Below are positions 1 through 63,700 of a stretch of DNA of 64,000 nt, in pieces. Each line of letters begins with the position of its first letter. The stretch's first letter is position 1. The position numbers and the translations under genes were made by a program. The DNA is taken from assembly GCA_905178155.1 (NCBI GenBank), contig CAJINV010000014.1:716116-780115 (forward strand). The letters are read 5' to 3'. The stretch is from Amoebophrya sp. A120 (Eukaryota > Protista > Dinoflagellata). The notes beneath the pieces are model-generated. The model saw only the letters and a list, made by a program, of their open reading frames with translations, was not told the DNA's origin and ran no database searches.

Positions 1-229
1 TGCAACTTGTCATGCTAAATCTGAAGCATTGAAAAATCTGTGTTGCATGATTACCAAAAGTGGTCCAGTTTTGACCAAGTCGGGAGGGAGTTTCTCATGC
101 AGGGTAGGCATGAGAGAGATCGCGCAGAATCTGTCATGCTAGGTCCTGCATTCCAGACCTCGTGTGTCATGGAAAAGCTGCATGACAAATCTGACAATCT
201 TCCAGACCCAGACATTTTTACAATCCATA
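1..229. mobile_element. Introner family A (partial, right end)
   Basis: TIR CTTCCAGACCCAGACATTTTTACAATCCATA. Confidence 0.85.
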
Positions 230-3200
230 CCCCGCGTCGACAGCCAGCTCCTTGCCGATGTCGGACATTTTGGTGTCTTCCTTGGCCAGCCACAGGGACC
301 GGACCAAACCCAGCACGGACTGCACCCCTATGGACACAGACATCGACATGGCCAGACTCGTGGGCGCGAGCATGTAATCCTTTCCGGCCACCGCAGAGGA
401 AGCATTCGCGAAGCTGGGGCCCGCCGCAGGGTGCTGCCGAATCACGTGCAGGCCGCCACGCATCTGAGTTTATTTTTGCTAGTTGTTCGGTATAGTTACT
501 TGGAACTGCGTATGCCTACTATTAATCAGCTTTAGAAAAAATTTTCCATGGTGGTCTGTCACGCAGATGGATCACAACAACTACAACATCCAACGGGCCC
601 TGCTCTATTAAATGAACGAATAGAAGCGTAGGAGTAGTACCGGGTCCACTTTGAAGGTGTAGTGTTTTAGCGGCAAGAAATTCTCTCCGATCGCGTTGAT
701 ACCACCTGCCAGGGACGAGGAGGCCCCTCCTGCGGACGCCGCGCTGGTCGCGCCCACAGAAGTTGCACCAGTGCTTGAGGCCGCAACCGCGTGGGCAACG
801 GCCTGGGATGAAGCTGCGCCCGCTCCTCCAGTGACACCTCCACTCCCCGCGGCCACCAACGCAGCGTTGACTTGCCCGGCGTTGTTTGCAATGAACAAAT
901 TGCCCCCGGCGGTGGAGGCAGTGGAGACGTATCCTGTGCAAAAACGTCGGGGGCCCCAAACCGCATGTTAATTGGAGGTCATGCAAATCTGCATGCAGCT
1001 GCCCCAGAAGTCTCTCATCATGATTCCCAATGAGCAGCACTTTCCATATGACGTGTTGGACCAGCCTTCCGAAAAAATCATGCTCTTGCTAGCAGGACCA
1101 CAACATGGCCAATTACAATTTCAATTCGTCGTGATGCGGCTATTTATAGCCAAGCACGACCACAGAGACAGACACATACACACTGCATGTCATCAAAAGC
1201 ATGCGGAGTCGACAATGTGCTTCTCGAACAAGAAGATCTGTCTAACCAGATTTCTGATCTCGCCTCCGGAAAGGGGTGAACGACGTTTTTACATAGAATA
1301 AGATGACGCGCTGGATGAGCCAGGTGTCCGCGACGTTTTTGATGGCGTTGGTGGTACTGGAGCCGGTCGCGCCGAGAACGTAGGCGGGCGTGATCACGTT
1401 GGGCGTGGCCCGGTAGTGCGTTATAACGCGCTCAGGTGTTACAATCTCAAACGTTACAATAGAGTTTGGAAATCTGTGATCCAAAAAGTGCATGACCTAG
1501 CCTTCATCTCCCACAGGTCTGCGCATGACAAGTTCCGGAGTCCCAAACCGCACTAGAATCATCATCTGGCGAGATTTGTATTGCAGAAAGTGGACCAAGT
1601 CTGTGTCTGTCATGCTCATCATGCAACACAAAATCCAGACTCTATTGCCACATTGAAGATTGCAACATCTGAGCAAGCCATATGCGTGATCCGCGTCTCC
1701 TGTTCTATGGGCTGCTTCATCTCGGCCTCCCAACGGTTCGACAGGTTGTTCTGCTCCAGGTTGGGGTGGTGCGACAGGGCGGCCCGGTTGATCCGTGTTC
1801 GCGCGGTGGTGGTGCAAGAGAGTTTCTTCGCTCGTGCACAGGTCGTCGTCTCTACTTCGGACGTAGTCTTCAGCTTGTCGCTCAACCTGATCGCCGGGGT
1901 CTCCTGTGCCGTTCCAACACCGCCTGCTTCGTCGGGCGAGACCGAGAGTGTAGCTGCCGTTCCAGCTTCTGCATGACAAAGTTCATGGTCTGATTCCGTG
2001 CAAGCCGTGGACTCAACATCGGACTGGGACGAGGGCCCGTGCTGGTGCTTATGCAGTAGGAAAAGTACACGACCGCATGAGGATTTTCCTCTTCATTCAT
2101 AACCATAAGTAGTAGTAGAAATTATTGCATCACAAAAAATTGTTTATGCAGTACAACAAGCAAATACCAACATCTGAAAGATGGAGAGAAAGAGGTTTTA
2201 AAACCTCTGCGATCATACCGATCAAGACTCGTATTGCAAGTATAGTACTGCTGCAAATTTCCGCGGTACTACTGGTACTGCAAAAATTGGAATTTCATCG
2301 TATGATTAGAATTATAACCCGTGATCATGCGAGGATGGTACTTTTGCAGATGGGATACTGGTTTGTTTTTTTCTTCTATGGAGAGAAAAAAGTTTGTCAC
2401 AGTCACTACCTTGCAGGTTTTGCATTACAAATTTTTTCAGCATCACAGCTTTTCTTTGTATTGCAGAAACACTAGGGAAATCCCTAAGGAAGTTTGGCTG
2501 TGATGCATTTTTACGCATGACAGGAAGTTTTGTATTGCAAAAATGCGCATGAGTGATCGTGACGAACTTTTTTTGTTTGATATCTTCGTCGGTCCAGTAA
2601 AACTCTGTTTCCCGGCGCGCCGACCATGGAGTTTTGGAACCTTCACCGTGATGGGTTTGTCGTGAAAGTATCACTTGCAAAAACGTCCCCATCCCAGAGT
2701 TGTCATGCAGATTGGCAATGGCAGGAACATTTGTAATGCGCATCTCCATGAGAGGCATTTCCAGTCGTGTTTTGGCATTTGCAATGCTGTAACCAGGATA
2801 AGCAGATGGATTTGTGATGCGTTTGCCCTTGCTAAGCTGCACTACACTACGGACTGAAACTTGTGATGCGTGAGTTCCAAAGCCTCTAGGTTTGTGTTGC
2901 AAAATCCCCATCTTGACTCTGGGGTGGGGACATCTTTACTCAGGATAGGAAGGCGCCAAAGGTCAGCGACTGGAAATCGGACTCGGAACCTCCCGAAGCG
3001 GCTGACGAGGGGGACCGCGTGGACTGGTCGGAATGGTGATCATGATGCTGATACTCACCACCAGCGGACGAAGATGTTGATGTGAAAGCGTGCCTAATAG
3101 CACTTCCATCCTGCTGGTGGTCTACTTCACGACGCGCCTCCGACGAAAGAATGTCGTTCGGTCTTCTCCCATTTTTAGTGCCAAAAAGCTTCTTGTCGGC

Positions 3201-6200
3201 ACCATGTTCGCTGGTCGTGTTAATATTCTCTCCACTGGAAGTAGTTGTAGTGCTAGACGTCATGAAAGCTGACACGCTGTGCCAAAACGTGTCAAGCAAA
3301 GAAGGCTTGGCGTTGTAGTAATTTTCATCTTCCTCAGCGCAGGAAACACCTGGACCACGACCGTAGAAATCATCATCCTGCTCATCGGCATTAGAAGTGG
3401 TGTTTGAAACACACGAGCGCGGAGTGCAATTATCAAACAAAAAAGTGCTAACGTTAACGGTTTTCGCAGATGGCAGTTATGCATTTACAAATTTTGCCTT
3501 CCATGCATGCTGCGCAATACAAATTTAGGCACCTGACATTTCCTGATGCATTACTGCATAACAAATTTCGTAAACGTTAACACTTTTTCTTGTGATAGCA
3601 ATTATCCTGCTCCGACGTTGAAAAGTCCTCTACTTCGCTGTTCACGTCGGTGGTAGAGTTCTGGTCCACATCCACCCCGGTGGCGCAAGAATTCTCGTCC
3701 GTGAAGAAAAAAGAACCCCCGCCTGCTTTTGATGATGTCTCGTCCCGTCCGTGCACTTCGAGTTGGTGATCCTCCTCGTCGGATACTACAATTTTTGTCC
3801 CGACATAATCCATCGACTTTTGCGCGGCGGCCGGGGCCGCCCCACCGGGGGGCTTCAACTTCGTATCGCTCCTTCGTGGAGGTCTCTCCGTAGCGAGAAA
3901 GTCGGGGGAGTGCAGCAACAGTGGCGTGACGTCAGACGGTCGTGTGGAATCGTTGTTCCTCCGGTCATCTTGCGTGCAACCACGTGTGGGTGAGAGGGAC
4001 AACGTCTTTGCGCCGTCCGAGTTGGAAGTTGCACAGAAATTGTGCTGAGCATCCCGTGGAGGTCCTCTTGCAGAAGGAGCCCGCCCTTGATGTTCGACGT
4101 CCACATTGGTCTCCTCACTGACAGGTGGGGATTCGAGCAAAAACGTAGACCCGACGAGCAACGAAGAGCCGGTGGATGCTTGTTCTTCGCTGACGCACCT
4201 ACTAGAGATCAACAAGTCCGGCGTTAGTGTTTGCTGCGGTTCTTGTTCAACATCTCCTGTCAACATCAGGAGGCTGTGGTCCTCGTCCTGGATGCTTGAG
4301 GTGGAAAGGTCTTGCGACACCTCACCAACACGCGTCGAGCAACTTCCAACGGAAACATTCAAATATTGTGATGCTGCAGTTCTTGCACCAGAAGGCGCGC
4401 CGCCTTGCTTGTCTTCGTGCTCCTGGAGGTGGTTCTCGTCGTCAACTACACACCAGTTGTCTTCAGGAAGATGATCTGGCGGCGAGTAAAGAGTAGAGGC
4501 GTCAGTACAACCAGTTGTAGCATCTGCATCCCCATCAAGAACTTGTTCTACAGAAGGCGCGGTCGTGGATGCTTGTCGCTCGACGAGGAGATTCGCTTCG
4601 ATCTTAGCTACTGCCCTAACCTTTCGCGGCGTTTCGAAGGCCGCATCCTCTTCATCTCGCAGTTGTGCTATTTGCAAACCCGGCGGGGCTTCTTTTTCTT
4701 GTCGCGGAAGCGGTCGCACATCACGATTCGTAGTTGTAGATTCAACGATATCAGTGTCGGCTTTCCTCGTGCTCTCCTCGCCTTCTGCTTCTTCGAGGTG
4801 GTCGTCGGGCCGCGTTGCAGTGGTCGTGGTGGTTCCAAGGGTAGCTTTCAACAATATCTCGTCACCTTCATCTTCTGCCGACGAGCAGGGAGGTGATAGC
4901 ACATCAACCGGGCTCGTTCTTTTGCTGTGCGGTGGATCATCCTCGACGTCGTCTTCCTCGTCCTCGTCTTGCAGCTCTACTCCCTCCTCTACCACCGGCA
5001 GCTGCATCAATTTTGCCTTGTGCATTCGCATCAGATGATGTTGATGAGAGGAGCCGGAGCCGGACGACAGATGATTATTAGCATGCTTCAACGAGTGGTG
5101 TATCCGGCCGGCCTTTGGGTTGATCTTCGTGTGAGGCTGTGACCACTGTGAGGGATTGTTATTATTTCCAGCTTGTTGCCTTGTACAAGTTGTTGTGCCA
5201 ACGACATGCGCCGACGAGGAGGGGAGTTTGCTGTTGTAAAGAACTCCTGCTGGACTACTGGAGGAAGCCGCAACAACTACTCCTTGTCCTTCTGCTCCTG
5301 CTGGTCCAACAGCTGCACCGCTAGTAGTTCTACAACTCGTCCTCCCGTTTTTCATCATCAAATTGTGGACATTTTTACTACTATTCGTTGCAGTGCCTTG
5401 CTGCAGTTCTAGTGCCTCATGTTCTTCTTCATCACTCGCCCGCGAGGTTTTCTTATCCTCGTGGTCTCGTCTGCTCGACGTCGACCTGGCACCAACAGTG
5501 GAAGTACCGCAAGACGCCGATCTGCTACTACCACGGGCAGCTGCTCTTTGCTCCCTGCCGCCTTGTGCATCTGCAGGGACGATAGTAGATGAAGCGCTTC
5601 TACCCGAACTACCGGCGGTAGGAGCTGTACTTTTGCCGAAAAACTCATGCAAGAAAAAAACTGCGCAAGTCTAGGTAAGTTTGTGTTGCAGATCATGTTC
5701 AATCCAGTCACAGTTGTCATGCTGGTTGTGCGTCTTCATCATGGGTTCGCTTCATAAGTGTTTTCAGTTTCACGTACTTTACTGACGTACTAGGTGCCGC
5801 TGCGCATGACAGATTAATGTGTCAAACAAATTTGTGATGCGACTCAGCATCCTGCTCCAAAGTTACACTTCCACAGTTTTTCTTTTGGATAAAACTGGAA
5901 GGATTTGCCGGGCCGGATGCCGAGCCAGTAATCTTCCAATCGCCGGAGGTTTTTCTCCACAATGCCCTCGGCTTGCGGTTGTAGCTGGGAAAGAACCATG
6001 GCAAGGTTAGAAGATGTTCCAGCACGACCGCAAGTAGAATTTGTCACCTCATTTTCAGGTCCACCAACCGGAGCTCCGCTCCCAGCAGCTTCTCCACGAC
6101 TAGGACCACCGGAAGCCGTTTCCGAACGAGTAGATGATCCGGCAAAATTTTTTGCGGACTCATTTACCATGTCCATGTCCGTCCTCACGGAGGTTGTGGC

Positions 6201-9200
6201 TGTCGTGGTCGTTGTGGTTGTGCCGCACCTTCCCGGGCCCGTGGTTTTGTAGTAGTCGTCGTCCCAGGTAAGCGCTAGAGGTGCGGCCCCCCCTGCAGAT
6301 CCACCTCCAACCAGCAGACCGATTGTGCCAGTACTTCCTGTCGTGGGAATGTTGATTTGATTCCCCGTCAAGAAAATACTGTTTCCGTCTTCCTGCCCGG
6401 GGAAAATACTGCTGCCGGAAGATGAACTACAGGTACCGGCCGACGAAATTTCCACCACCGACTTGCCGAAAAAGTACTCAGAGTGGTACGCGTAGTTGGC
6501 CTATGCATTGCAAGTATACGTCTGGTGCTGTTCTGGAAGGATTCAATTACACTTACACCTGTGATGCGAACAAGTTCGAATCACGCAAAAATTTGTGCTG
6601 CACGAGCGCGCTTGTTCGTCCCAACATTGCTTCACTAGAACGCAAAGAACAATTTTGAGTTTCTCCGTACAAAACAGGCATCTCACCACCTCTGCAAACA
6701 AGCCTGGATAGGCTTTCGGGGGAAGTCAACATCCGCGTCACTTGTGTGAAGGATGCAAAAGCTGCACGACGACGACACAATCGACATCTCCACCTTTCAC
6801 TTCTAGACCCAGACGCAATATTTGCAATGTTGCATATGGCCAGCCCGGGCGGCACGTAGTTGCCGAACGTCAAGGAACGAAAGAGCTCCACCTTGGTCGA
6901 CAGGTGGCGGATGTGCGAGCACAGCGCCGTGATATCAAATGTAAAAATGTCTGGGTCTGGAAGAATGCAGAAGTCTGTCATGCAGATTTTCCATGACCCA
7001 TGAGGTCTGTAATGCATGCCCTAGCATCAGAGATTCTGTGAGGGCTCTCTGATGCTCATACCGCATCAGAAACGCCCTGTCCGATTAGCGCAGATTGCGC
7101 CTCTTATGCTGTTCATGCAATACAGATTTTATGTAGAGTCCAAAGGTAGCATCACAAGTTCCAACTTTCCAGACCCAGACATTTTTGCAGTTCATACGTG
7201 ACGTCCAGAAACGAAATTCGCGCGTTCAGAGCCATCAGGTCCACTTGGCGCACCCGGTTCCCCCGGCGCAGGTGCTGCAAAAACTGCAGCCACGCGGTGA
7301 ACTCGCTGTAGTCACACTCCACGGATATCAACTGTAAAAATGTCCGGGTCTGGAAGATTGCGAGCTTTGTCATGCAGATTTTCCATGACCCATGAAGTCT
7401 GGAATGCAGGGCCTAGCATGACAGAGTCTGTGAGGTCTCTGCCATGCCTATCCCGCATGAGAAACTACCTCCCAACTTGGTCGAAAGTGGACAGCTTTTG
7501 GCACTCATTCGTTCGTTCGTATGGATCGGCTCTGCCGACCGGGTGACCCATCGCCTTGCATATAAATGACCGACATAGGCGATCCCCGTTACGGGACATA
7601 CATATTGGCCGCACGGAAGGGCCCTAGGCGCTACATACATAGTTCATCCTAGCGCCTACCACTTCGGTCGGGACTAAGTCAGCCTGGTCCTGGGGGTTCA
7701 CAGCGCACTAGCCATCTGCTAGCATAAACAGACTGGGTTTTACAAACTGTAACTGATCTAACATCTCATAACAGTGAGGCCATCATAAAGGTGCGCTAAA
7801 ACGGGTTCGGGGCGCTCCGTACGGAAGGGAGCCTTTCGACGCGGCGCACACTCTCCTGTAGAGTTTTACGCGGAACACGGATGGGCCGCGCACGCAACTC
7901 AGTCGAGGAGGACACACGCTCCCTCAATAATAGAGGCGGTAGTCAGGTCACTCACGGCGGCTGGCCTGTCTGAAAACGGTAATCCCCACCACCCATCTTC
8001 CCGGTTCGTCAATGACTCTGGCAAGCCATGTTACTTAGACTCCCCGCACATGCAAATATGGGACGGCGGGGGGGTTTTAAAAAGAGCTCTCGCCGTCCTT
8101 GATCTACTATAAAAGAAAAAGCCCTATAATTTCGGCGAGGCTGTTTAACTACTCGCTAGCTGATGGCCTCCTCAGGCAGCCGGCCCCGGGCATTCTCCGA
8201 GGCTTAAAACTTGCTATATTTTTTCTAATGTCGCGAAGGAAAACAAAGAAAGAAAGTGGCGGCAATGCCGCCAAAGACAACACCCAACCCGAAGACCACC
8301 GGGCAAAAATCATGGGGGGTGGGACACCAAAAACGAACGGGGCCAAGAACTTCGCGGCCAAATACCTAGCGCCCTGGGGCTCCTCCCATCCAGAGAGAAA
8401 ATGGCCCAGAAGGGAGGCGACCCCGAGGGGAGGCCAGGCGCGGTGTGCAAGATTAGGGGGGGCGGCAATTCGCCCACACAAAAAACCGGGAAACCGCCCG
8501 GCGAAATGATCAACAGCAACCACCTAGCCGGAAACAGACCGGGCGGGGCACCTCTTGCCCCGACTAATTCCTTGCCTAAATCGATGCTAAGGCAGGCGAC
8601 TAACTTCGCGCCTAAATTCCTGGCTAAATCACGGCTAATTTTTTTCATTGCAAACCCTTTCGCATTCCCTATGCTTGAATTAGAAACAAATTAGACGCGA
8701 AATTAGACCCCAAATTAGCCCCCCCCAACCCCACCTCTGCGCCCCTCATAAACCTCGGCCGGGCGGGCCGGGGCCATTGATATGCGGCCCGAGACAAATG
8801 GAAAACAGTCGCGCCGTTTCCCTCTGGGGCAAAAACTAAAATCGCAGGGGCGCAAACCTTGGAAACCCCGGGCCCCGATGCGCCACGGGCCCTGCAGACA
8901 CTGGGGCGGGCAATCTTCGCCAAAAAAATTAAAAAAAATCCCCAGCGCCCCAATTTCCAAAACCTGCAAAAACTACCGACGAAAAAACCCTTGCCCGGGC
9001 TACCTCTAGAACCCTTGGGGCCCCAGACTCGTGGGGCCACGACGAAAAGAAAAAAGGAGGGCCACAAGCCGGAACAATGTGGGCCCCACAATATTAGAAA
9101 AAAATCGGCAGCCTTTTAGGCGGCAAATTTGCGAGCCATCGGCCGGCTGAGCCTCCTGTATAGTAATGGTCTCCCTTTTCTCCTCCTTTCCCCTTTCTCA

Positions 9201-12200
9201 ATTTAACTCGCCTGCATCCCCCTGCTAATTTAACTCGCCTCCCCGTTTATCTCTCTGAAAACTCCGTCCGCAGTTTCACTCTCCTGCCAATTTAACCCGC
9301 GACGCCAACGGCTTTACTTCGGCGCATGGTGTGAAATCTTCGCGGCTTCTCTTCTCAGCTCCTCGACCTCTGCGCAGCGTTTTGCTCTGTTACCTTCGTT
9401 TTTTTTTTTTTTGGATCCGCGCCGCGCTTGTTTCTCTGAGTGCGGTCGATCTTCTTGGCCTATCGTCGCCGCCTGTTTGAAAGTTTGGACATTTTGAAAC
9501 GCGCCCCGCGATTCGCCTGAAGCTTATCGGGGTGATCTTGGCCCTGTCGCGTTCGTTGGCAACTTAAGGGATCCCCTGGAGATCCTTAATCTGACTGCGC
9601 TGAAACAATCTGAGAAGTATGAGGGCAGGATCTTAAGGCGAACGCGCCGGGTCATATTTTCCGGCAGTCCTCGAGCCTGCCGGGCCTTTTCTTTTTTTAT
9701 TCAAACGGGAAATAGTGTTTTCGTTTTTTTCTATGATTTCGATGCTGTGCGTTTTTCAAAAATCTCCGGAGTGCATTTCTCAGACTTTTCAGTCGCTCGG
9801 CCTGGTGTCCGATTTTCGGTCCGTCACTATGTCACTTCAATCATAGGGATCCTGCGTCGCCTGAAGTCGTCCCCCCGCTCCCCTTCCTGTGCTGTCTTGC
9901 AGCGATCTCCGAATAATCCGCAGCGATCTCCGAATAACCCGCTTCCTGTGCTGTCTTGGCACTCATGCAACACAAATTTTTGCATTATTCGGATTTAGCA
10001 TGACAAGTTTTAATCTTCCAGACCCAGACATATTTGCAATGCATAACGGAGACGCACCGGCGAAAGTGGCTGTTGCGGAAGTAGAACCGGTACTGGTGCT
10101 TTTTTGTGGACGTCCCGGATATGGTCTTGATCGGGTTCAGAGAGGCGGAACTGCTGTTGTGCGAAGTGGAACTACTAGAGGTGCCGGACCGTGGAGGGGT
10201 GCCAGCGCCTCCTGGAGCACCACAAAGAGGTCCTGGCGTGCTATTGTGTTGCATGCCAGTTATCGACGTTGTACTCACGCCGTTATTAGCAGGTGCTAAA
10301 TCACTACTTCCAGCATGTTGATGCGCTGCGGCAGTAGAAGAAGTCGCAGCGGCCTGATCGGCGACATTGTGCTGGTCCGCGACTGCGGTAGAAGTGGCGC
10401 TCCACCGGCCAAAGATAGAACTCGACCCACTAGCAAGAACACCCGCGCCGCCGGTTGTAGTGGTTCCGTCTTTCATCCGAGAAGTGCTGTTGTTTTGCTG
10501 CTGGTGCTCCACCCCTGAAGAGGAATTATGGCCTCCTGCCCCTGAAGGTGCTGGGGGTGGTCCTGTACAACCGGTAGTTTCGACTTCTTCCTTACTGAAC
10601 ATCGAGTGCGCCCCGTTGATAATGGCCACGTTGCTCCCAATCGAACTCGTCGCGGTCTTCATCTGCTCCATATTACGACCCTGCAAATGTTCACCCTGTC
10701 GCTCGCGCTCGGCCTGCTGCTGGGCTCGATGCTGCGCCTGCTGTTGGGCGGCTGCGGCGGAGTCCGAGACGTGAAGCATTATCATATGTAAAATCGTCCC
10801 CATACCAGAGCCAAGATGGGAAATCTGCTAGACAAAATCAAGCAGCTTTGGTTGCTTCGCATGACAAGTTTGTCCTTGTAGTGTAATCCTGTTTAGGTAG
10901 TTTAGCAGCACCACAGATCTAGCCTATCACGCGGATTCTAGCATCACAAATGCCACAACACGACTAGAAATGGCTTCGCATGGGGCTCCGCATGATAAAC
11001 TTTTTTCGCATGCAGATTTGCATGACAACTCTGGGGTGGGGACGTTTCTGCTCAGAATAAGCATGTCCAGGTTGTTATCGGAGGTGGACAATCGGTTCAC
11101 CGAACTCGCTGAAGAGGACCCGTAGTATCCATGATTCTGCGTACTAGCCATCTGCTGACTGTGCATTTGCTGTTCGATGATTGTCGCACCATTGCCAGTG
11201 TTCACCGTGTCGCCGGGTTCATCTGTGTTGCAGCTGTTCGTGGTTTTCGTCAGCGAGGTTGTGTTGTTTGTGGTTATGGTCGTCCCAGCATTTTGATTTT
11301 GCGCGGCACGACCCGCAGACGAGCTGTGGCTGTGGCGCGGACCTCCACTTGTTTCCAGGTGCTGATTCTGTTGGTCTACTTCTACTGCTCCAGACGTAGA
11401 ATTACTGGTTTTATTCACATTTTTCGAGGAGGAAATGGAGCAGGAGGAGGTCGTGTCAAATGTAAAAATGTCTGGGTCTGGAAGAGTGCATGTTTGTCAT
11501 GCTTGTCTGGTATGATTCTCAAATCTGTCATGCACGTTACCGAATAGCGCCAGTTTTCTGTCATGCAGAAACGCAGGCTGTAATGCAGAATAAGCAACAC
11601 CTAGAAGCTCAGAAACTTGCCATGCTGAGCCAGCACTTGTGGCCTCCTCATGATACGCCACCCAGCATCACAAGTTTCCAGACCCAGACATTTTTACATT
11701 TGATAGGTCGTGCTGTGCTTCGGATTGTCCACCGACGAGGACGCGAGGTTGCTAGAGGATGATCCTGATGCTGCTATGAAAGCGTCTGGATTGAAATCGT
11801 CAAAGTTGAAATAATTATTTCTCATGCATAAATTGGAAGGCATGAAGCGCCTCTCTTGCAGGGATGGCAAGTGAGGCCGACTGTCAGCCTGTTTGGGGTC
11901 TGCGATGCAGCTGCTGAAGTAGCATGACAAAGGACGCCTTCTATCCCTAAACAGCATGACAAACTGGATTTAGACGGTGCCGAAATTTGTCATGCGCCCC
12001 TTGGCAATTGGGCTTCCAACTGGTATCGATTTTAATATGCATATACAAGTTATTTCAACTTTGTCGATTTCAATCCTGACACTCCCATAGCTGCGTTTGG
12101 GGAAGAAGTGGAACTCGAGGAGGAGGAGCTCGTCGTGATTTCGTACGGCAAAACCAAGAGGTCCGCAATGAAGCGGCTGGCTTCAATGTGCGGCAGGCAC

Positions 12201-52262: not shown

Positions 52263-52889
52263 TCTCGGCGTGGTTCCCTTCGGTAGTTGTGCTAGTGCGT
52301 CTATTCTGGCGGTTCAGCAAAAACATGAGGACAATCGGGTTGTTGTAAAGCTCCGGAAAGGTGATGTGGTGTGCCACCGGAGCAAGTTCTTTATCAGCAG
52401 AACCGTTGGCAGGAGCCTCCGGCAAGACCCGGTGCTCGCGATCCAGCACCGGCGGTCCAGGCCAAAAACGCGGGTCGTTGTCGAGCTCGTTCGAACCTTG
52501 TTGATATAGTTCGCAAGGTGGAATAAAACATTAAGTGTTCAATGATTCATTGTTTACCAATCAATCTGCTTCTCCTGCTTTTTACTTATGTCGTGTTTAA
52601 AATAAAAACAGTTATCTTGAAAAAGTAAATAAGTAGAAAAGTACCGTCATCCGCCGGTTTTTCTTGCGGCTCTTCAGCATTCTTGCGCACGGTTCGTTCC
52701 ATCAACGCGGCATAGGGTTCGGTCCCCAGAGCATCATGCGTAATGTCCCAGCCACTCGCCGGCAGAGTGTGGTGGAGAGGATCCGACTTCGCTAACCCTC
52801 TTAAGGTCCAGGTCGGCATGGAAAGTCTGAAGTGTGAAATTCAAGTTCGTACTCGTTTCCATTCTTTCCTCTGTGACAAGTACTATTAT

Positions 52890-54131
52890 TTAGCGAAAGA
52901 GAAAAAAACTCACAAAAACGCTCACAAGAGGACCGAAAGGAAACACCAAAACGCGAAAATAAATACAAGATGAAGATGGATTATACCTTGAAGCAGCTTC
53001 TTCGTCCTTGAAAGCCTGGTGCAACTCCGGAGCGGCTGTTAGAGGAATATTCTTGACAAGCTTTGTTCTTTGCTTTGGTGGCTCTTGCTGCGGCTGCGCA
53101 GACGAAGCCGCGAGCCTTTGCGCCTCTGCAGCCGGCGCCGTCGGTTGTTCTTCTTGTTGATACACCACCCGCCGTCGCCCCCGCGGCTTCCGTGCTTGTT
53201 GCTGCGGCTGCGGAGCAGGCGCCATGGCGCTACTTGGTGCCCATCCAGCTGGCATCGGCTGTTGTTGATCATTCCCCGCGGTGAAGCTGTCGTCCGGGTG
53301 AAGCTGCAGGCCAGGCGGACCCGCAGCTTCTCTACTAGCCGAAGGTTCAGAAACATGCACCTGCGAAGATGGATAGCCCGGTCCGTAACCTTCAAAACGC
53401 GACGCCTCGTCTTGGGGCCTTTCGTCGCCAATCCTAGACGGCATCACGGACGGACGAGCACTGAACATGTCATCGTGTTCGCGGTCGCGTTCCCTCACGT
53501 AAGGAGCTTGTTGCAACAAAATATCTTCCGACCGCGGGGGAAGCGGACCGGTTTCAACATCATGGTGCAGCCACGACGAATTATAACCAGCACCACACGA
53601 CCTCTGCTGCGACTCCTGCCACGAAGATGGACCACCCGCCGCCAACGTGCCCCCGAAAAGAGAGAAACATCTTCGTGGCGGACTCGTGGAGTGCTCCCGC
53701 TCCTGCAAACCCGGTGTAAGTGGCATTGCGACACCAGCTGCGTTCATGGCATAGCCTTTTGCGTCCGCTTTCGCACCAGAAGGAGACGCTCGATGTGGGT
53801 TTCGAAATTGCCTCCGAGTCGGTTGAGCAGTAGCACGGGAGTTATTGGGAGAGGATGTTGTCCACGTTCTACTTGCCGGATCATCATGCTCCTGAGTCAG
53901 AGCATGCTGGTCGTGCGGGAGAGGATCTTGGACTCCTTCCGTGTGGTATGTTTGATAGTGTTGCGGGATGTTGTGCAGTCCCGGGGATGAAGGGGTGAGA
54001 TTCAGTCCCGGAGGAGCGAAAAATCCGTTGGGAAACGGAGAGTTGGCGCCTCTCGCGATCTCGGCTCCGAAAAAGGCGGAATAATACACCCGCAACATTT
54101 TTTGCTTCTTCGCAGTTTCAAAACTCGGCAC
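52890..54131 (-). CDS. Uncharacterised P/Q-rich, probably disordered protein
   Basis: 413-aa ORF co-oriented with neighbours; boundaries uncertain. Confidence 0.45.
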   Translation of the reverse strand: MPSFETAKKQKMLRVYYSAFFGAEIARGANSPFPNGFFAPPGLNLTPSSPGLHNIPQHYQTYHTEGVQDPLPHDQHALTQEHDDPASRTWTTSSPNNSRATAQPTRRQFRNPHRASPSGAKADAKGYAMNAAGVAMPLTPGLQEREHSTSPPRRCFSLFGGTLAAGGPSSWQESQQRSCGAGYNSSWLHHDVETGPLPPRSEDILLQQAPYVRERDREHDDMFSARPSVMPSRIGDERPQDEASRFEGYGPGYPSSQVHVSEPSASREAAGPPGLQLHPDDSFTAGNDQQQPMPAGWAPSSAMAPAPQPQQQARKPRGRRRVVYQQEEQPTAPAAEAQRLAASSAQPQQEPPKQRTKLVKNIPLTAAPELHQAFKDEEAASRYNPSSSCIYFRVLVFPFGPLVSVFVSFFLFR

Positions 54132-54794
54132 GCTGCGACTTGTGCTGAAGCTGAACTAGTAAAGTGCCAGAGTATTGGCTGACTGTTGTGGTACACAAAA
54201 GTTTGTTCAATTCGAGGAGTCACGTGCGTTGGAGTAGATCGATTGTTTCGTTTTGTGGAAATAACTGTTTGCAATGACAGATTGTGCAATTCGTGGGTTG
54301 CGTGCAATAACAAACATGCGGCGCGTGCTGCGATAAGTGGTTTCTTTCGTTTACGTTCTGGACAATAGTGCCTTATGCGATTTCCTTGACGCGAAAGCGA
54401 AAGTCGTGCTTTCTCTGTAGAAAAATGTTTCAGCGAAATACTTTACCCCTTTGGAAGTGGGCGTAAACTTTCTATCACGCGAGAGAGGATCGCTGGAACT
54501 CACAGAAAAAAATCGATCGGGAAACAGGATCACGCTCTTGAACGAGAGTGAATGAACAAAGACCGCGGTTGATCAAATTCAGGACGGATGGCATTAGCAG
54601 ATCCGATCCTATCGGTGTGACAAAGATGAAAAGATTCGGAAAGACATAACTGGCGTCGGTCTTGTTACTCCACCACTGCAGTTCTGTCTAAAGCAACACT
54701 TCTTTTGCTAAAGCTGTCTCGCTAGTCGTCTAATTGAAGGCGAGAGCCGGGCTGCTCTCTCGGACGAGGATACAATTACAAACCTCGCCTACTT

Positions 54795-57700
54795 CTAGAA
54801 GAAGTATTTGGCCGCCTCCCGAGCGATGCGCTTCAGTTTTTCCTTGGAAATCCCCAACTTCTCCGCCATCTCCTTGTTCGTCAACGCTGGCTCGTCGTTT
54901 TTCAGATCCAAGTATCAAATGCAAAAATGTCTGGGTCTGGAAGAATGCAACTTGTGATGCTGCATTTGGATGTCTAAAAAATTTGTGTTGCATGAGCAGC
55001 AAAAAGATCTAATTTTTGCTTAGCGGAGAGGGCATTTGTCATGCTAATAGTCATCACGAATCCCTCGAAAAACCTGTGATGCTAGGGCATGCATCACAGA
55101 CAGCATGGCTCATGCAAACCGTGCATGACAAGTCTCAGAATGTTCCAGACCCAGACATTTTTGCATTTGATACCAAGTAAGCAAACACCAAGGGATCTTC
55201 CACGGCGTTCTTTTGCACTTCCTCTACCACCTCCCCGCCACCAACAGCACGTGCTGCCGGCGCGAACGAGGAGCTACCGCCCGTCGAGCTGCTGCTCGCA
55301 TTGATGTTCAGGTTGTCGTTTCGGTTTTTTGTTCCCTTAGACTGCTCGCACTGCTGCTGACCTCCATTGAGCGCCTTCCCGATCTCCAGTAACGCCATGC
55401 GCAACTCCGAAGACTTAAACCTGCGGTCATCGATCGGACAAAAATGTTGTTGATTCGAGTTATTCTTATTTTGACGAGATGCGCTACAAGTCGGTACAAC
55501 ATTACATCACACAGTAAAAAGAAAAACACTACATTTACTTTGACCACATCATCTTGTTCCGACTTCTTCTTCATCATTGTTGATGGGTCATTCATCTCAT
55601 TGTTTTATGTTTCTATTGGACAAAAGCGACACAATACTTTTGCAGAAAATCGCCTCCAACCACCGTCTGTAACTCCGCCTTGAGCTTCTCCGAGCAGATT
55701 CTTACGCTTTGCAGGTCGGACAACAGGTCGCAGACTTCTCGTTCCCGTGTGTCCGGCATGTGGAGTATATGCGTCTCCGTAAACTCCGATAGCGGCTTCA
55801 ACCCTGCCACGCCTCCCGTGACCGGGCTATCAAATGCAAATATGGCCGCTGGGTCTGGAAAGTTGTCACGATGCAAAAGGTCGTGAATCATAGGAGCACT
55901 GCGATAGTGCGCTGCCAAGCATGAAAAGTTTTTCCGCTCCTGTTGTGAAGATTTTTGCATGCCTATAGGCATCACAAAGCTCATCAGAGTCACCATGTCA
56001 GACAAGCACCATGGCAAGCAATGCTTTCAGACCCACGGCGATATGAAAATTTGCAGAAATGCATAGAGGCAGTCGGTGATCGATTTGAAGTCCCAGAATC
56101 TGCTGTTTTTGGGGATTTCCCGGAACCCCAGCAGGCAGGTGTTGCGAAACAGGCGGAGCCGCTTCACCGCGCGCGACCGTTGCTGCAGCAGCGGCAGGAG
56201 CGATTTCCTTCTCGCCTGCAGCGGCTCGATGAACTTTTCCCGCGTTTTGGAACTGATCAAACTTTTTTTTCCCGAGGACATGATCAAAAGTGGACTTGTT
56301 TTTAACAGCGGTCTACTGTTGCTGTTATTCTTCACGACAGGGCTCGACGTGCTGCTGTCGTCCGCCACAATAGATGGACCACAAGGAGCAGCAGTAGTTC
56401 CTTTGTTCGCAGTCGTTGCAACCGCGGCCGCGGCCCCGTCGACGAGAATCAGTTTCAGCAACGCCCTATGCTGTGCAAAAGTATCGCACTCGTACTAATT
56501 GCAAATATGCATGACAAATCTCCCTCCTAAGGTAAAACAGCATATACAGATTCCACTTTTCTTCTTGCCAAAATTTGTAATGCAATTTATACTAGTACGT
56601 TACTTTTGCAATGCATACGCCCAGGTCAAGGCTTCCACCACTACGGGCTGACCCGAGAACGATCCCTGCTCCTCCTTTTTCCCAAGCAGCACAGACTCGA
56701 AAACAGCCGCGGTTTGGTAGCCGGTCCAAGCGGCGCAGTGTGACGGAATGCAGTTCTTCATCGAGAGAGTGATCTTCCCAGCTTGTTCATCCCCGTGCAG
56801 CTCCTCTCCTCGGGGCGGGCCACCCCGTAGTTTGTTCAAAGAGGACGTAGTTTGTGGCGCTCCCGTAGCTGGGTGATGCCCACCACGTCCACCGCCGTTT
56901 CGCGGGCACAATTCCAGGTTTTCTTTCTGCAAGGCCTTCTTTCCCTTTTTCCCCGCGACCGCGACCGACCAGCGACCGGTGGCCGCAATTTTCCCCTCCA
57001 CACAGCCGTACTTGCCGTTCAGTGCCTAATGGAGTGCAAATGCGCCTGGGTCTGGAAAGTAGATGCGATGAACTTGTGCTGCGGATGCTATTGCTAGCAC
57101 ACACCACAAAGCCTTGTGTTGCATGATCTAGCAGAAGATGCGCGCTTTTCGTTTTGTCCCTAAAAGACGCGACTTCTCATGCGGCCTATAGGCACGGAGC
57201 CTCCGAAGAATTTGCCATGCGCTGTGAGTATTCCAGGCCTTCTTGTTCTTTCGGATGCAAAAACAGCATTACAAGAAGGTCTGCTATCTTCGTTCCAGAT
57301 CCAGCCGGATTTGCACTTGATACGCCTGCCCCGAGACCGATTTTAGGTCCTTGATTCTCACGAGGGAGCCGATGTGGAGCTGTTCCCGATGCAGCGACGC
57401 TGCGCCAGCAAGTTCAGAAACTTTCATCTCCTGCAGAAAGAACTCTTCCAAGTGCAAGCAAGTGTAGAACTGCAACTCAAAGGTCGCTCGAATACGGTAC
57501 ACGGTGGCGAAGAACGTCTCGATGTGTGCTATGCTAGTGGATGACAACTCCCCCTCCCATTCCGTCGTCATGCAAAATTCATATGCCCCCAATGGCAATA
57601 ACCCGTATCTGGCCCTGGGCCCTGCTCTGGCTGTGTTTGCATAACAGGGCCCGGAAGCCCAACAAGCTGCGCAACTCCTGGCATGGTCTTGCCATGCGAC

Positions 57701-60700
57701 AGCTGGATCCTGCTTCCGGTTGTAGTTATTTCTGATGTTGATGCTACATACAACAAACATACAAATGCCCTGCAAATTATGAGGAAAAGGGAGAGATCAT
57801 GTTGTCCGCCATCTTCGTATCAGTCCCTTTCAGCCCACTACCGACGAGTTCTTGCATGCTTCGCGGGGTGTCCTTCTTGAAGATGCCCATGTGGAAAAAT
57901 CGCATCGACGGCCCGGCCCCGGTATGCAGCTGCTGTAGTGGTGAAGCAGAAGCACGCTCTTGCGTATGATCTTTTTTTGCCTGCTTGGATTTTGAACTAC
58001 GCGGCTCCTGCTGCAGTGTTGCAGCATTAGTGGCACATGTCTCCTGTTGACCACTCGTTTTCGTCGCATTGTTGTAGGCCCAGGCGAGACTACCTCGTGA
58101 AGATGATGAACAGGTCGAGGCGGTTCCACCTCCTGCAGCCCCGCTTATTTTCTTCCGTACTTGAGCCAGATCCTTGTCCCGGCCGAACACCCCGAACAAC
58201 CCGCCCGCCCCCGGCAACTCCAGCCACTGGCAAATGGGGTGCTTCAGGTCCTGCGCCGTGGCCCCGGGGAGCGTCGGCTGCGCGGGCAGACTATGAACTG
58301 CAAAAGTATCGTACTCGTATAGATGCATTACAAATTTTCTCAACATGAGAAAGAAAATTTGTAAATGCGGATTGGCCTTAGGTAAAGGATTTGCAATGCA
58401 TGATTGCAATACGAGTACGATACTTTTGCACAGGATACAGACACGTCGTGGCCAATTCATAGAGCAGAACCGCCTTCTCGAACCACTCGTTGCACAGGCC
58501 CAGCAGCGCCACCATCTTGGTGGGCACCTCCTTGGGGCCGGTGCGGTGTATCAAATGCAAAAGTGTCTGGGTCTGGAAGTCATGCATTATTTTGCATGAC
58601 CCACGACGCCTGTAATGCATGCCCTAGCATCACAGATTTTTAGAGGGCTTCCTGATGCCTATTCCGCATGGGCTGCCTGATAACGCCCTCCCCGCGTGGC
58701 ACAAACTGAACTCCTCTTGCTAGTCATGCAATACAGATTTTTTTGGAATCCAAAAACAGCATCACAAGTTACCAACTTCCAGACCCAGACATTTTTGCAT
58801 TTAATACGGTGCCGCAGGATGCCAATCCGCTCCATCAGCGCGGGCAGGTACACCCACCGAATGGCGCGGTAGTCCTGCGCATACTTGCACACGTTGTTGC
58901 TACCCGGGGCTGTAATTCCGAGCTCCCGCTGCGACTGCTCGCGCTGCTGCCGGGCGTACGCGGGCTCGCCCCGGTAGACCAGCGAAACCAGCGCCTCCAA
59001 CTGGGTGGACGACGAGGCGGAATCATTTTTGTCCTCCTGTTCTTGGTCGACAACGTAGTGGTCCACCACCACAGCCCCATGGTCAACACCGTGTTGCTGT
59101 TCCTCCTGCTCCGTAGTTCTACTTGCCGAAACAGAAGCTGCAGCCGCTTCGTCCGCACCAGTCGGGCCGCTGGTTAAACACGAAGAACTTTTCGCTTTCG
59201 ATTTCGCCGCAGTAGAAGTACAACTTGTTTCACGACTCGTACTAGAGTTATTTCTTGTGTTCGTTCTGACACTCCCGAGAAACGCCCAGGCAATGTTCGC
59301 TCGGTTCTCGTTTTCGGTTTCCAGTTCAAAGGCCAGCTGGAAGTTCAGCAACACCTGCACCAGGTTGGAGCTCCACTGCTGCAAGTCCGTCATGGTGTTC
59401 AGGTGGAAGTCTCGCCACGCCGGCTCGGTCCAGTACTTCCCAAAAACTTCGTGTTCCGACGCGTGAGCTCCGTGCTTCTCGAGCAGCTGGAACACCTGCT
59501 GGCAAACCGGGTGGGGGCAGATCGTACCAGACCACTCGTGGTGCAGCATCAGGAGAATGTCAGCCATGCCCTGCAGCACGTCCTGGGCCAGGATGCCGAG
59601 CATCAGCGCGGCCACCGGATCCAGGTCCACGTCGAGCTCGCCGTTGTCCCGCGTTTTCGCTGCGGGAAACAGGATATCTTGATCTTCCTCATAGTCCTCC
59701 ACAACACCTTGAAGTTGTTGTAAATCCTCATTCCTCTGACGACCCAACCCGTGTCTTTGTTCTGCTCGCACCTCGGGAAGCGAGCTGGTGCTTCTGCCGT
59801 CCTGGCCGAAGACCAACTTTGCGAAGTCCTCCGTTTTCGCAAAATACTCGGTCATCAGATCCCGGAGCGCCTTGTCGTGCGGAACCTCAGGGACTTGATC
59901 CAGCTCGTAGTCCGGAACGCCGCGGAACACGTCGGATTGTTGTTCGTACTGTGTCCGAAACGCGGCCTGCCGCTCCTTGCTGCCCTTTGGCAGGAATTTC
60001 TCCTCCCGTTCCGTGAAAGCGGTGGGAATCCGCGGCGCCACAAACCCAATCTGCTCGCCGGCCTCCCGGTTCTGCAACAGGCTCCCGTAGTCGGCCCGCA
60101 CGAGGGCGAGCGAGTCCGGTTTCAGGCTGAGGAGGACCTTCTTGCTGCTGTTGTTGTTTTTCGGATAGTTTTCGTGGTCCGGACTTGTTTGCCTGATGTT
60201 TTCGTGCAACAGTCGCACGGCATACCGCGTTTGATGCCCTTGCTGCGCGGAAATGCATTCGACAACTTCGGCCCGCTGCCCATTCAACTCCGGCTTGCTC
60301 TTTAAGTTCTTCAGATTCACCCGGTCTCCCACGCAAAAGATAAACTCCTTCTTGTCTTTCGTTTTATTGTTCCCGGGGACGATATCAAACTGGGCGTGTT
60401 CAACATCGGGCAGGTGTTGCGAACAAGCTGAAGCAGATGAGACCACTGCGGTATCAATTTTATTCCTGCTGGTCGCCTTCTTTTTCGAGAAAAACGCCTG
60501 CTGGCCGTGGTTAAAAGGTACCAGCCCGTATTTTCCCATCTGCTGATAAATCGGCGCGAGCCAGATCAGGTACGTGGCACAGGCGGAGAACAGCTCCACC
60601 TGCTATCAAGTGTAAAAATGTCTGGGTCTGGAAGATTGGAACTTGTGATGCTGCATTTGGATGTCTAAAAAATTTGTCTTGCATGAGCAGCAAAAGGATT

Positions 60701-63700
60701 CTAATTTTTGCTACGCGGAGAGGGCATTTGTCATGCGGAATAGGTATCAAGAATGCCTCAAAAAACCTGTGATGCTAGGGCATGCATCACAGACATCATG
60801 GCGCATGCAAACCATGCACGACAAGTCTCAGAATCTTCCAGACCCAGACATTTTTGCATTTGATACCTGCTGCAGCATCGCCACTGCGGTCGCGGGATCG
60901 GTTGCGCGAATGGTAGTTGCGACGTCAAGAACCGATCCTCCAGTACAACTTCTACATTGTTCTTGCTGTGCCTGTCCCGACCGCTCTGAAGAGCCACCGC
61001 GCCGACTGCCTTTCAGCTCGTCGCCAAGCTTCACATACCCATCGACCTGTTTCACATCGATTTTGTAGTCTTGGTCCTGCTCCTTCGCCGCATTGATTTC
61101 CTCCCGCTCGTCGGCATCGTCCGCCATCTCCGCGAAGTAGCGGCGGAGGTCCGCGGAGGTGAAAACGCCGTCCTCGTCCTTTACCTTTGCGGTCTTTTTA
61201 CCACTTTTCGCATTTTTTTCATCTTCTTTTTGGCCAACATTCTCATCGTCTTCTACATCGCTTGCCTCGCCGTCGTCGTCCTCCATTTCCTCTGCCTTTA
61301 GTTTCTCCGGCGCGCCCTCCAGCGGGTCCATACCCCACTCTTGCTCCAGCTGCCGCCGGATCTGTGCACTCGAGAACCAGCCCCCGAACAGAGCCAGGGT
61401 CTCGGGGTCGGCGGACCGGCACGTGTGCTCGCACGCGCCACACAGGATGTTGTAGAGCCCAAACAGCAACTGCTTCTTCTTTTTCACCGCTTTAGGCGAT
61501 GTTAACTCTACCTCGGCCTGTCGGTCCTGGTCTTTCAGCCCCTGCAGGGTAAGGTGAAAAAAAATCTTCAAGTTTAACAACTCCCCGTCGTCCGCAATGT
61601 TGAGCCCCAAATTTACGGCCGCGTGTTCCGGTGTGTACAGAATGTAGTCCTTGTTCAACTGCTTCTGGTCCGCGAGCTGCCGCTCGCGCACTTGCCTGGA
61701 CAGGATCCGCTTCGCCTCTGCCGAAGCCAGACACGAACTGTTTTTCGTGCCGCGTGTGGTCTTTTGCTTCTGGTCCTTTTGCTCTTGCAATCTAACATCG
61801 TCCGCCAAGCCCGTCAAAAACAGTTTCCGCATCGCCGAGGCGTTGGCACTTAGCTCCAGCGTGCCAGGCACAATGCCCACCTCGTTGTCCGAAGTACCCG
61901 GCGCGGTCAATTGGTACCAGCACTTCGGCGAAATTTCCGAAGTGGGGACGCCAAACACCTTCAGCAGACGCTGCAAAATGGTCTCGATCTCCGCGAATTG
62001 GCGATAGTGGAAAAACCGCTTGCGCAGGTCCTCCAACAGGAAGGCGACGGAGAGCGCGAATGCGTGGCCGAAGTGCTCCACGACGTAGTGTCGCTTCAGG
62101 TAGCCTTTCTCCACCGTGGCTGCGATGAAGTCGAACGCTTCGGTCACGGACGCGTAAAAGAGTATCACATTCCCATACTGCTTCTCCAGGTTCTGCCCCT
62201 CGTGCTGGTCGTGGACCACGCTATTAGTATCATCTGCTTGTTGTTCCTTCCTCTTGCGGTTGTACCACTTGTTGCCTTTTTCGCGTAGCCGTTCCTCCTT
62301 CTTCGTGCCGTCGCCGTCGTAGTCGTCCGCACAGGACACTTTCTCCACCTCCGTCGCGAGCCGCGCGTTGAAGCGGGTCGCCAGGTTCCGCAGCATGTCC
62401 TCCCGCTTGTCGGATACGAGCGCGCTTTTGCGCCAAAACTTCGCGTGCATGTCGTCGATCAGGGCCAGGATCTGCCACAGGCCGTCGGTCTCCACGAAGG
62501 ACACGAATCCGGTGTCGATCACCCGAAACACGCGGGCCCGGATGGTGGCCAGCAGCACAAAGTCCAGCTCTTCCAAAGTTTCGGACGACAAGAGGTCTGT
62601 CAAATTCTTTTTGCTGTACTCCTTCGTTGTAGTTTGTTCGGTACAGGTGCTTGTCGTACTACTAGCGGTCGCACTAGCAGTCGCAGAAGTGGTTTTAATA
62701 CCGGCACGTTGATCAACATCGCCAGCCCCCTGGGCGGGTTCCAAGCCCAGTCCTGCTAACGCTACGGCCAATCCATCAACGTCAACATCTTTCACTTTGT
62801 TTATTTTGCCCTCCCCTTCGTCCGCAACCGCAACCGCATCATGACCACAAAAAGCATAATCCTGGTCCGGAATCAGCCCCGGGGGTTCGCGGTTCTTCAT
62901 CTCCTTGAGCACTTTGCCGGGCGAAAACAGCTTGTGCTCGTAGAAGAACATCTTCAGCTTCCGCTCGGCCTGCTCAAACGCTTCCTGACTTAGCAGCACG
63001 AAAACTTCCTCCAGCACCGCCTCCACGGCCCCTTCCGCGTGGTCCTTTTGCGCCGCCGTGAGCTTCTCGGCCTCCGCAGTCAGCTCCGCGAGCAAAGCCG
63101 GCTCGCCCGCCAGTTCCTCCACGAGAATCACGGGCAGTGTCCAAGAACTTCTTATCCAGAGCAAAAACGTCCCCAACCGCCCAGAGTTGTCATGCAAAGC
63201 AGCAAGCTTAAAATGTCCCACATGCGCAACCCCATGAGAGCCATTTTCTAATGCTATCTGCAGACTTGTCATGGTAGAATCAGGATGAGGTAGTCAGTTT
63301 GTGATGCAACTGCACTAGCTAAACAGGATTTTTACTCTACGAGACCAAACTTGTCATGCTCGACAACCAAAACTTGTGGATCATTTCTGTAGCAGATTGA
63401 CTATGGGGTCGGGGACGATTTTGCTTAGGATACAACTTCTACCGTGATTTTTCACGTCGACCTTAGAAGTTGTTGACGGCGGACTGTCGTCCTCCGGCGA
63501 CGGTGCTGCGGTAGAAGCCGCACCGCTGCTGCTCCCGGGTGATTGCGGCGGAGATGATGCTGAACTGCTTGTGCAAGAGTCTTCATTCCGTGCGGATAGA
63601 GTTGAGGTTTTTCTGTTGTTCGTGAGGACCTCCGGTGCAGGAGGCTTTTTACCAGCATAATTTCGACCACGATTGATTGACGCTGTATCTACTTCTCTCG

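Follow-up and report, generated by a model that had tools for sequence, protein, structure and literature searches.

Introner elements in a 64-kb stretch of Amoebophrya sp. A120: removal of element plus five nucleotides and a probable fixed cut position beside the inverted ends

The stretch of DNA analysed here as a whole, hereafter the window, is a 64-kb piece of the genome of Amoebophrya sp. A120, within which elements, genes and reading frames were surveyed. Its coding sequence is interrupted by short, transposon-like introner elements, whose deletion together with five adjacent nucleotides (nt) leaves long open frames. All element-carrying genes lie on the minus strand:

608-23170, minus strand: host gene, 4,274 aa after removal of 29 elements; its ortholog has no Pfam family
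24968-29424, minus strand: protein kinase gene coding for 889 aa, with 7 elements and a single GT-AG intron (27216-27398)
34416-39374 (approximate), minus strand: COG6-like gene, 7 elements and canonical introns
40947-49151 (approximate), minus strand: tubulin glycylase (TTLL3-like) gene, 7 elements and canonical introns
54790-63911 (3' end approximate), minus strand: HicA-domain gene, the deposited A120 protein P0001 (2,224 aa), with 9 elements and a single GT-AG intron (55421-55637)

A 595-aa exon of this last gene (54790-63911) has 100% identity to protein P0001, whose label is Amoebophrya sp. A120. A HicA domain (PF07927, residues 6-48; window 63770-63911) opens this 2,224-aa eukaryotic protein, a feature common to two EukProt relatives.

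Scans for inverted ends found 60 whole elements and one truncated by the window start, and a relaxed rescan of the remaining window sequence gave no additional convincing element. An earlier note on this DNA, made from its letters alone, had spoken of about 62; its class and scale stand, its count does not. [quoted passage not shown] It does not suit the size of the remaining one (7326-10045), which measures 2,720 bp. The termini read TAT…ATA in 55/60 elements and are off by a single base in the other five; over 120 ends, positions 1-3 are T in 118, A in 119 and T in 118, seven variable bases follow, and then comes a run of A (99, 100 and 106 ends at positions 11-13). The DR is perfect in 45/60 elements and has unequal copies in 15/60, in line with the TIRs and 5-bp, sometimes decayed, target-site duplication described earlier, and alternative lengths of 2-4 and 6-9 bp are perfect in only 0-10 of 60, which is chance level. 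The window list was built partly with the DR as a criterion. A finder that uses the TIRs only recovered 30 elements from the window, every one already listed, and 0 from each of 10 Markov versions of the window that served as controls. Moreover, in 161 loci collected with the TIR pattern as a second sample (the 80 listed rows of the metagenome collection, representing 78 loci, all come from assembly JACKZZ01), the same finder gave 232 elements, with a 5-bp DR that is perfect in 184 and has at most one mismatch in 213, other lengths being perfect in 0-24. A further 90 loci with a long, distant form of the family were left out of these counts. Neither a target-site consensus nor palindromy was found in the DRs of window and loci elements, their sequence being arbitrary.

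Among the 59 short elements there are families of 19, 9 and 5 members, six pairs and 14 singletons. The large families are present in both orientations in same-strand genes (8 and 11; 5 and 4), and 50/59 window elements match JACKZZ01 loci near full length, with an identity of up to 97.6%. In predicted folds, the two ends pair in 57/59 elements, with little pairing outside the element; folds of single elements gave z = -8.95 (21773-22024) and z = -3.68 (another element). An 8-nt motif, GCATnACA, occurs with its complement in 1-6 copies in most elements, the forward form mainly in the inner and 3′ quarters, and might represent subterminal repeats bound by a transposase. At TIR position 4 of oriented elements, the C:G counts are 178:67 (5′ ends) and 148:92 (3′ ends), a bias that may reflect an orientation preference of some families. 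No cognate transposase was found: the longest TIR pairs in the 161 loci span just 457-631 bp, viral contigs gave 0 matches to the TIR pattern, and the interior of the 2,720-bp element holds no frame above 176 aa (its frames were not compared with databases). Farhat et al. 2021 (PMC7789003) likewise report no transposase in A120, and a later paper describes A120 TIR elements with Copia/Gypsy-like frames. The 2,720-bp element is a main-family member that holds ~2.4 kb of unrelated sequence, either a nested insertion or a larger element; a DNA-like contig at ~3x unique depth touches it at 9884, which suggests a repeat.

The location of the elements in coding sequence agrees with the earlier note. 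Long minus-strand frames, which span 78% of the element-free sequence, hold 58/60 of them (p = 7e-5), and the other two also lie in coding frames. There are no intergenic elements, and the frames 30328-31386, 47061-49151 and 50529-54155 are also element-free. The elements are listed below with the number of matching DR positions; k counts the bases of the upstream DR that stay in the exon, the 4+1 register is a k of 4, and "contig" is the RNA-like contig described after the list.

1-229: element truncated by the window start
930-1300: DR 4/5; the residue of the ortholog speaks somewhat against a 4+1 register
1422-1682: DR 5/5
2050-2357: DR 3/5, weak TIR
2377-2582: DR 5/5
2669-2947: DR 4/5
3431-3597: DR 5/5
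5646-5891: DR 5/5, one terminus changed
6502-6836: DR 5/5
6933-7196: DR 5/5
7326-10045: DR 5/5, 2,720 bp with ~2.4 kb unrelated interior
10780-11059: DR 5/5, missing from contig
11454-11705: DR 5/5, missing from contig
11775-12089: DR 5/5, missing from contig
12204-12351: DR 5/5, missing from contig
12529-12785: DR 5/5, missing from contig
12856-13109: DR 4/5, missing from contig, k of at least 3 required
13538-13799: DR 5/5, missing from contig
13874-14081: DR 5/5, missing from contig
14795-15065: DR 4/5; contig piece boundary implies k of at least 2
15244-15565: DR 5/5, missing from contig
16382-16534: DR 5/5; contig short by exactly 158 nt; GT-AG at the 4+1 register
17177-17411: DR 5/5, missing from contig
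17458-17602: DR 5/5, missing from contig
19202-19360: DR 4/5; contig short by exactly 164 nt; k of at least 1
20821-21070: DR 5/5, missing from contig
21125-21259: DR 5/5, missing from contig
21436-21714: DR 5/5, missing from contig
21773-22024: DR 5/5, missing from contig; fold z = -8.95
22303-22561: DR 5/5, missing from contig
25477-25739: DR 5/5
25835-25986: DR 5/5
26058-26315: DR 5/5
26510-26774: DR 3/5
27542-27811: DR 4/5
28041-28149: DR 5/5, shortest element (109 bp)
28626-28877: DR 5/5
31583-31835: DR 5/5, within a short open frame
34996-35306: DR 5/5
35984-36189: DR 5/5
36503-36778: DR 5/5
37373-37591: DR 4/5
37834-38155: DR 5/5
38206-38522: DR 5/5
38753-39004: DR 5/5
41631-41778: DR 3/5
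42502-42762: DR 5/5
43147-43297: DR 5/5 (TTTTT)
43346-43561: DR 4/5; conserved Trp requires k of at most 4
43746-43990: DR 5/5, interrupts the PLTVY|LWKQP motif
45052-45356: DR 5/5
45415-45638: DR 5/5
54913-55172: DR 5/5
55828-56065: DR 3/5, decayed TIR; P0001 requires k of at least 4
56467-56617: DR 5/5
57028-57322: DR 4/5
57530-57819: DR 2/5, decayed TIR; P0001 requires k of at least 4
58292-58437: DR 5/5
58549-58806: DR 5/5
60604-60865: DR 5/5; GT-AG at the 4+1 register
63153-63432: DR 3/5; P0001 requires k of at least 4

Deleting each element with 5 nt opens the 4,274-aa frame over 29 junctions, where the earlier note had counted 26; it also opens, over the numbers of junctions given there, the kinase (889 aa, 7) and the HicA-domain gene (9), as well as the COG6-like and TTLL3-like genes (7 junctions each) and one short frame. 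Conversely, a single element left in place led to a stop in 58/58 cases tested. The motifs PLTVY|LWKQP and GGLL|NLDPKFR are both rebuilt on removal, as had been noticed before, and ortholog alignments confirm continuity at conserved junctions, 15/29 junctions of the 4,274-aa gene being inside alignments. In the JACKZZ01 loci, removal of +5 gives a confident open frame in 72/176 elements, vs 14-20 for +3, +4, +6 and +7. The frame test fixes the removed length modulo 3 only, +2 and +8 opening the frame too, so that the exact value of +5 comes from the gaps of the RNA-like contig and the letter-for-letter reproduction of P0001; both fit +5 exactly, and +2 and +8 were rejected. Sliding of the boundary towards canonical ends was rejected as well: GT-AG is obtainable in 2/60 elements only, and GT/GC/GA-AG or AT-AC in 14/60, which bears out the earlier statement that no consistent GT-AG or AT-AC can be reached in this way.

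Read data from 4/11 runs were compared over 19.9 of the 64 kb, and 19/60 elements were covered by a probable RNA contig. This contig comes from X1, a run with assembled contigs whose RNA status is guessed only, and X5 is a run that behaves as DNA. The X1 contig (15,640 nt) aligns in 8 pieces to 7,144 nt of exon with 0 mismatches, and each of its 7 gaps equals the summed elements plus 5 nt for each of them (19 elements; two gaps hold a single element). Elements of both orientations are missing from it, and it starts 179 nt before the start codon. The X1 depth is zero in two intergenic bins where that of X5 is 43-45. Taking out nine elements with +5 each, plus one GT-AG intron, yields P0001 without a single differing letter. 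The scarless loss of element plus 5 nt from RNA that the earlier note had expected is therefore supported for 19 elements through the probable RNA contig and for 9 more through P0001, and we regard removal at the RNA level as very probable. Removal of the 2.7-kb element at 7326-10045 rejoins a protein stretch of 94% identity; thus, this element likely splices by the same rule as the short ones. Very short exons lie between neighbouring elements at 2358-2376 (19 nt) and 17412-17457 (46 nt), repeats included, the latter being present in the RNA-like contig as judged by length.

None of the runs recorded as RNA contains this stretch of DNA. RNA reads from the raw-read runs X9 (201 reads) and X10 (6 reads), two of three such runs listed, fell on repeats only, and no junction was seen among them; X9 is a different sample with the same species label. 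About 200 of the X9 reads, at 14795-14877 and 9961-10035, contain ~80 nt from a single end of an element (90-95% identical), bordered on either side by foreign sequence, and at this one locus a half element without its partner TIR may stay in the transcript. As to empty orthologous sites, none of the collected loci overlaps window exons.

The position of the cut within the repeat is hidden by perfect DRs, so only the 15/60 elements with unequal copies can inform on k. Protein searches found no A120 counterparts of the TTLL protein and the 4,274-aa protein, and those gene models therefore cannot bound the register. The RNA-like contig is reproduced only with k of at least 3 at 12856 and at least 1 at 19202, and its piece boundary at 14795, where homology is uninformative, implies k of at least 2. 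P0001 is reproduced only with k = 4 or 5 at 55828, 57530 and 63153. An upper bound is suggested by 43346, where k of at most 4 gives Trp and k = 5 gives Arg: the homologs (99/120 aligned) have W49 Y23 H14 F12 L1 R0, and the closest ortholog has Trp. At a junction of locus L066 (Polysacc_synt_2 family), k of 1-4 gives Arg and k = 5 gives Pro; the motif was found in 20/40 family-selected bacterial homologs, with Q5 L4 K4 R3 H2 I1 F1 and Pro 0, the 20/40 without the motif having been dropped from this residue count; the L066 junction is a weak point. A set of 80 L066 homologs seeded with the Arg-bearing peptide (80/80 Arg) was discarded as circular for the choice between Arg and Pro, and a Rab-like junction in L038, which seemed to favour k of at least 4, depends on a general consensus and was not counted. 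Six unequal-DR elements are silent or lie within unconserved sequence, and when the unequal repeats of the loci were tested for stop codons, register 0 alone was excluded, at one junction. Altogether, k = 4 fits 8/9 informative junctions (contig and P0001 three each, conservation two), the exception being 930, and we consider a fixed 4+1 register, with the intron N|TAT…ATA|NNNN, to be probable. The elements at 57530, 55828 and 63153, whose DRs match at only 2-3 of 5 positions, still lose exactly +5. Guidance of the cut by the DR was therefore rejected, and the position of the cut is likely determined by the stem, not by the repeat. The fixed offset from the TIR stem that had been proposed earlier thus finds support on few junctions, with likely 4 nt of the upstream repeat kept.

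With k = 4, U stands at +2 and A at +3 in 60/60 elements, and +1 is free. AG at DR positions 3-4 of the transcript strand, a position chosen beforehand, occurs in 25/167 oriented elements vs 7.9% in phase-matched flanks (p = 0.0016; loci 18/107, window 7/60), and the mirror-image CT is not enriched (6/167). The first T deviates at 1/258 5′ ends vs 5/258 3′ ends (p = 0.22; one element starts with CAT), so a stronger conservation of the 5′ than of the 3′ TIR is not significant in these 258 elements. Table S4 of Farhat et al. (PMC7789003) gives T at +2 in all nine top A120 boundary motifs, and TT-NN motifs for A25.

Our preferred reading, to which we give a probability of about 0.5, is that these MITE-like elements are removed by a relaxed spliceosome whose cuts lie at a fixed offset from their predicted hairpin. 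A putative DNA transposase would insert the elements with a 5-bp duplication in either orientation. In the transcript, the paired element ends would bring the splice sites together, the 5′ cut lying 1 nt ahead of the stem and the 3′ cut 4 nt beyond its end. The element would thus give the intron U as its second base and A as its third, resembling GUA, with position +1 and the two final bases free, apart from a mild leftover preference for AG. The hairpin would replace U1 and 3′-site recognition. In the yeast spliceosome (P complex), the last intron G is described as pairing with G+1 and U+2 as pairing with A51 of U6, so both Gs could be lost together while U+2 is kept. Moreover, Farhat et al. 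(PMC7789003) report U2, U4, U5 and U6 and 83/89 spliceosomal proteins in A120, but found no U1; another Amoebophrya strain is described as having mainly GT-AG introns and U1. The U at +2 and the weak AG preference tilt the choice of machinery towards a relaxed spliceosome, which we hold to be the rather likely catalyst. More tentatively, the A120 spliceosome might have given up G+1 and the 3′ AG and let a transposon hairpin set the sites by a ruler, in which case any insertion, in either orientation, at any site and over lengths of at least 2.7 kb, would be a perfect intron.

Several points weigh against this reading. As to the loss from RNA, the X1 depth is also zero over one kinase exon, in a run whose RNA status is a guess; contigs can hide minor forms; and P0001 is a deposited gene model, not reads. 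As to the register, ortholog P0124 has Val at 930 (k 0-1) where k = 4 gives Ile, so that k = 4 there needs a conservative change in the exon copy. The upper bound of k comes from sequence conservation in one strong and one weak case and not from RNA, the weak case, L066, belonging to another assembly and concerning a variable position. For Farhat et al. (PMC7789003), the position of the splice sites varies with respect to the hairpin and the border is unknown, and 8/9 of their Table S4 motifs, those with A at -2, may also fit a 1+4 register or an aligner habit. As to the catalyst, the conservation of U+2 is inseparable from TIR symmetry; G at +1 is not enriched (51/167 vs 31%), G occurs less often at +5 (67 of 258) than at the mirror position (92 of 258), and AG at DR positions 1-2 is also seen in the window (9/60, p = 0.005) without being repeated in the loci (5/107), these counts being noisy. 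A branch-like internal motif is missing in 14/59 elements and otherwise lies 38-221 nt from the end at no fixed position.

The most serious competitor, although an unlikely one in our judgement, is a spliceosome-independent endonuclease and ligase for which the TAT/ATA stem would be the recognition signal and which would cleave at fixed offsets and rejoin the exons, similar to what has been proposed for euglenids. It would account for the freedom of +1 and of the 3′ end, where no base is required, for two equally conserved ends and for the irrelevance of orientation; against it, AG is enriched on one strand exactly at the inferred 3′ end, and U and A land at +2 and +3. A bulge-helix-bulge intron of the tRNA-endonuclease type has an exon-intron helix with two bulges around the cuts. 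This geometry was rejected for our elements: no pairing was predicted beyond the stem (mean probability at most 0.2 in the flanks), and DR positions 1 and 5 are complementary in 63/280, which is chance level; this is a further point against the nuclease and ligase. The nuclease-ligase scheme also gains from the failure to find U1 in A120 (PMC7789003), and from euglenid hairpin introns, which leave as full circles (PMC11282704). Another view accepts the loss of element plus 5 nt and lets the cut slide within the repeat between introns or molecules, as the 2021 paper implies. The 45/60 perfect repeats hide the register and would allow this, junction 930 leans to k 0-1, and Farhat et al. (PMC7789003) call the sites variable; the eight other informative junctions are nevertheless all compatible with k = 4, and 57530, 55828 and 63153 lose exactly +5 despite only 2-3 matching DR bases. 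We consider a sliding cut less probable still than the nuclease and ligase.

Two further explanations dispense with splicing, and both appear very improbable. The elements might be excised from DNA in some life stage, with X1 being such DNA; the guessed RNA status of X1, the transposon-like ends and the fact that the DNA-like evidence comes from a single run, X5, leave room for this. A ciliate-type internal eliminated sequence is absent from somatic DNA. In X5, however, the eight contigs listed keep the elements and pass from exon into element at depth 42-45, the level of unique sequence, although rare empty sites may exist among a further 2,717 joints; in addition, X1 contains no intergenic DNA and begins just upstream of a gene. 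Slightly less probable again, the junctions might be reverse-transcriptase template switches across a hairpin with short repeats, the cell coping with the elements otherwise. False introns have been proven to arise at a hairpin whose base carries short repeats (PMC2923612), and all RNA evidence used here is cDNA-based. This explanation has to face the stops that follow retention in 58/58 cases, in conserved genes, a single contig that lacks 19/19 elements, and a loss of +5 that persists where the repeat has decayed to 2-3 of 5.

Amoebophrya removes tens of thousands of non-canonical introns, and the mechanism has been open since 2021, partly because their borders could not be placed. If a fixed 4+1 register is true, it predicts exact intron ends, so that experiments on lariats, on circles and with inhibitors can be planned and interpreted, and existing RNA-seq data allow a genome-wide test. 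A spliceosome with U+2 as its sole constant base would, if true, mean that splicing can do without the GU-AG rule where the geometry comes from RNA structure, and would account for a transposon's ability to fill coding exons at little cost.

Among known systems, the closest is that of the A120 introner elements themselves, reported with inverted repeats of TAT + 7 nt + AAA, a size of ~240 nt, many families and RNA-seq support, and with border direct repeats of 3-5 nt, given as 5 bp in the Fig. S19 legend (Farhat et al. 2021, PMC7789003). The window elements match them in strain, TAT start, border repeats, families and non-GT-AG removal, a link stronger than the general one to Amoebophrya introners drawn in the earlier note. 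The element class, including TAT start, repeats and RNA-seq support, is thus already published, and the new part is the cut position: in that paper DR length and position are variable and the border is unknown, whereas here the DR is 5 bp, the loss is element + 5 and the register is likely 4+1. The figures of PMC7789003 show DR positions and could already imply the register; in a literature search that left most subscription journals outside, no paper fixing register or mechanism was found.

The window elements differ from U2-type introns with GT(GC)-AG ends, since only 2/60 read GT-AG at the inferred register, U+2 alone is constant and AG is mildly enriched, and from ciliate-type eliminated sequences, being kept in the eight X5 contigs listed (one run). 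They resemble the nonconventional introns of euglenids (Milanowski et al. 2014, PMC3935182; PMC11282704), which also have non-GT-AG borders, terminal pairing at a set distance and junction repeats, a proposed MITE origin and an unknown machinery. Euglenid stems, however, carry CAG/CTG at +4..6 and -8..-6 and a pyrimidine|purine junction (PMC11282704), whereas in A120 the stem starts at +2 with TAT, +2..+5 being T, A, T and C/G, and no junction base is fixed, which places these elements outside the euglenid definition. The MITE-derived non-canonical introns of Fritillaria borealis share the hallmarks of TIR and target-site duplication, and there a modified U2 spliceosome removes non-GT-AG introns (PMC11282704; bioRxiv 2025.08.15.670264); they show preferred ends, AG-AC and AG-AT, and a duplicated U2AF, whereas the A120 ends are nearly free. 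The introners of Symbiodinium, Polarella and Aureococcus, bounded by target-site duplications and TIRs, are similarly DNA-transposon-like, scarless and at a fixed position relative to the duplication, some of them in both orientations, but they carry or recruit G(T/C/A)-AG sites, and only 2/60 of our elements can read GT-AG (bioRxiv 2020.10.14.339549; PMC9860276). Seen against these systems, the phenomenon in A120 is real and its class already known, now with a sharper and testable rule.

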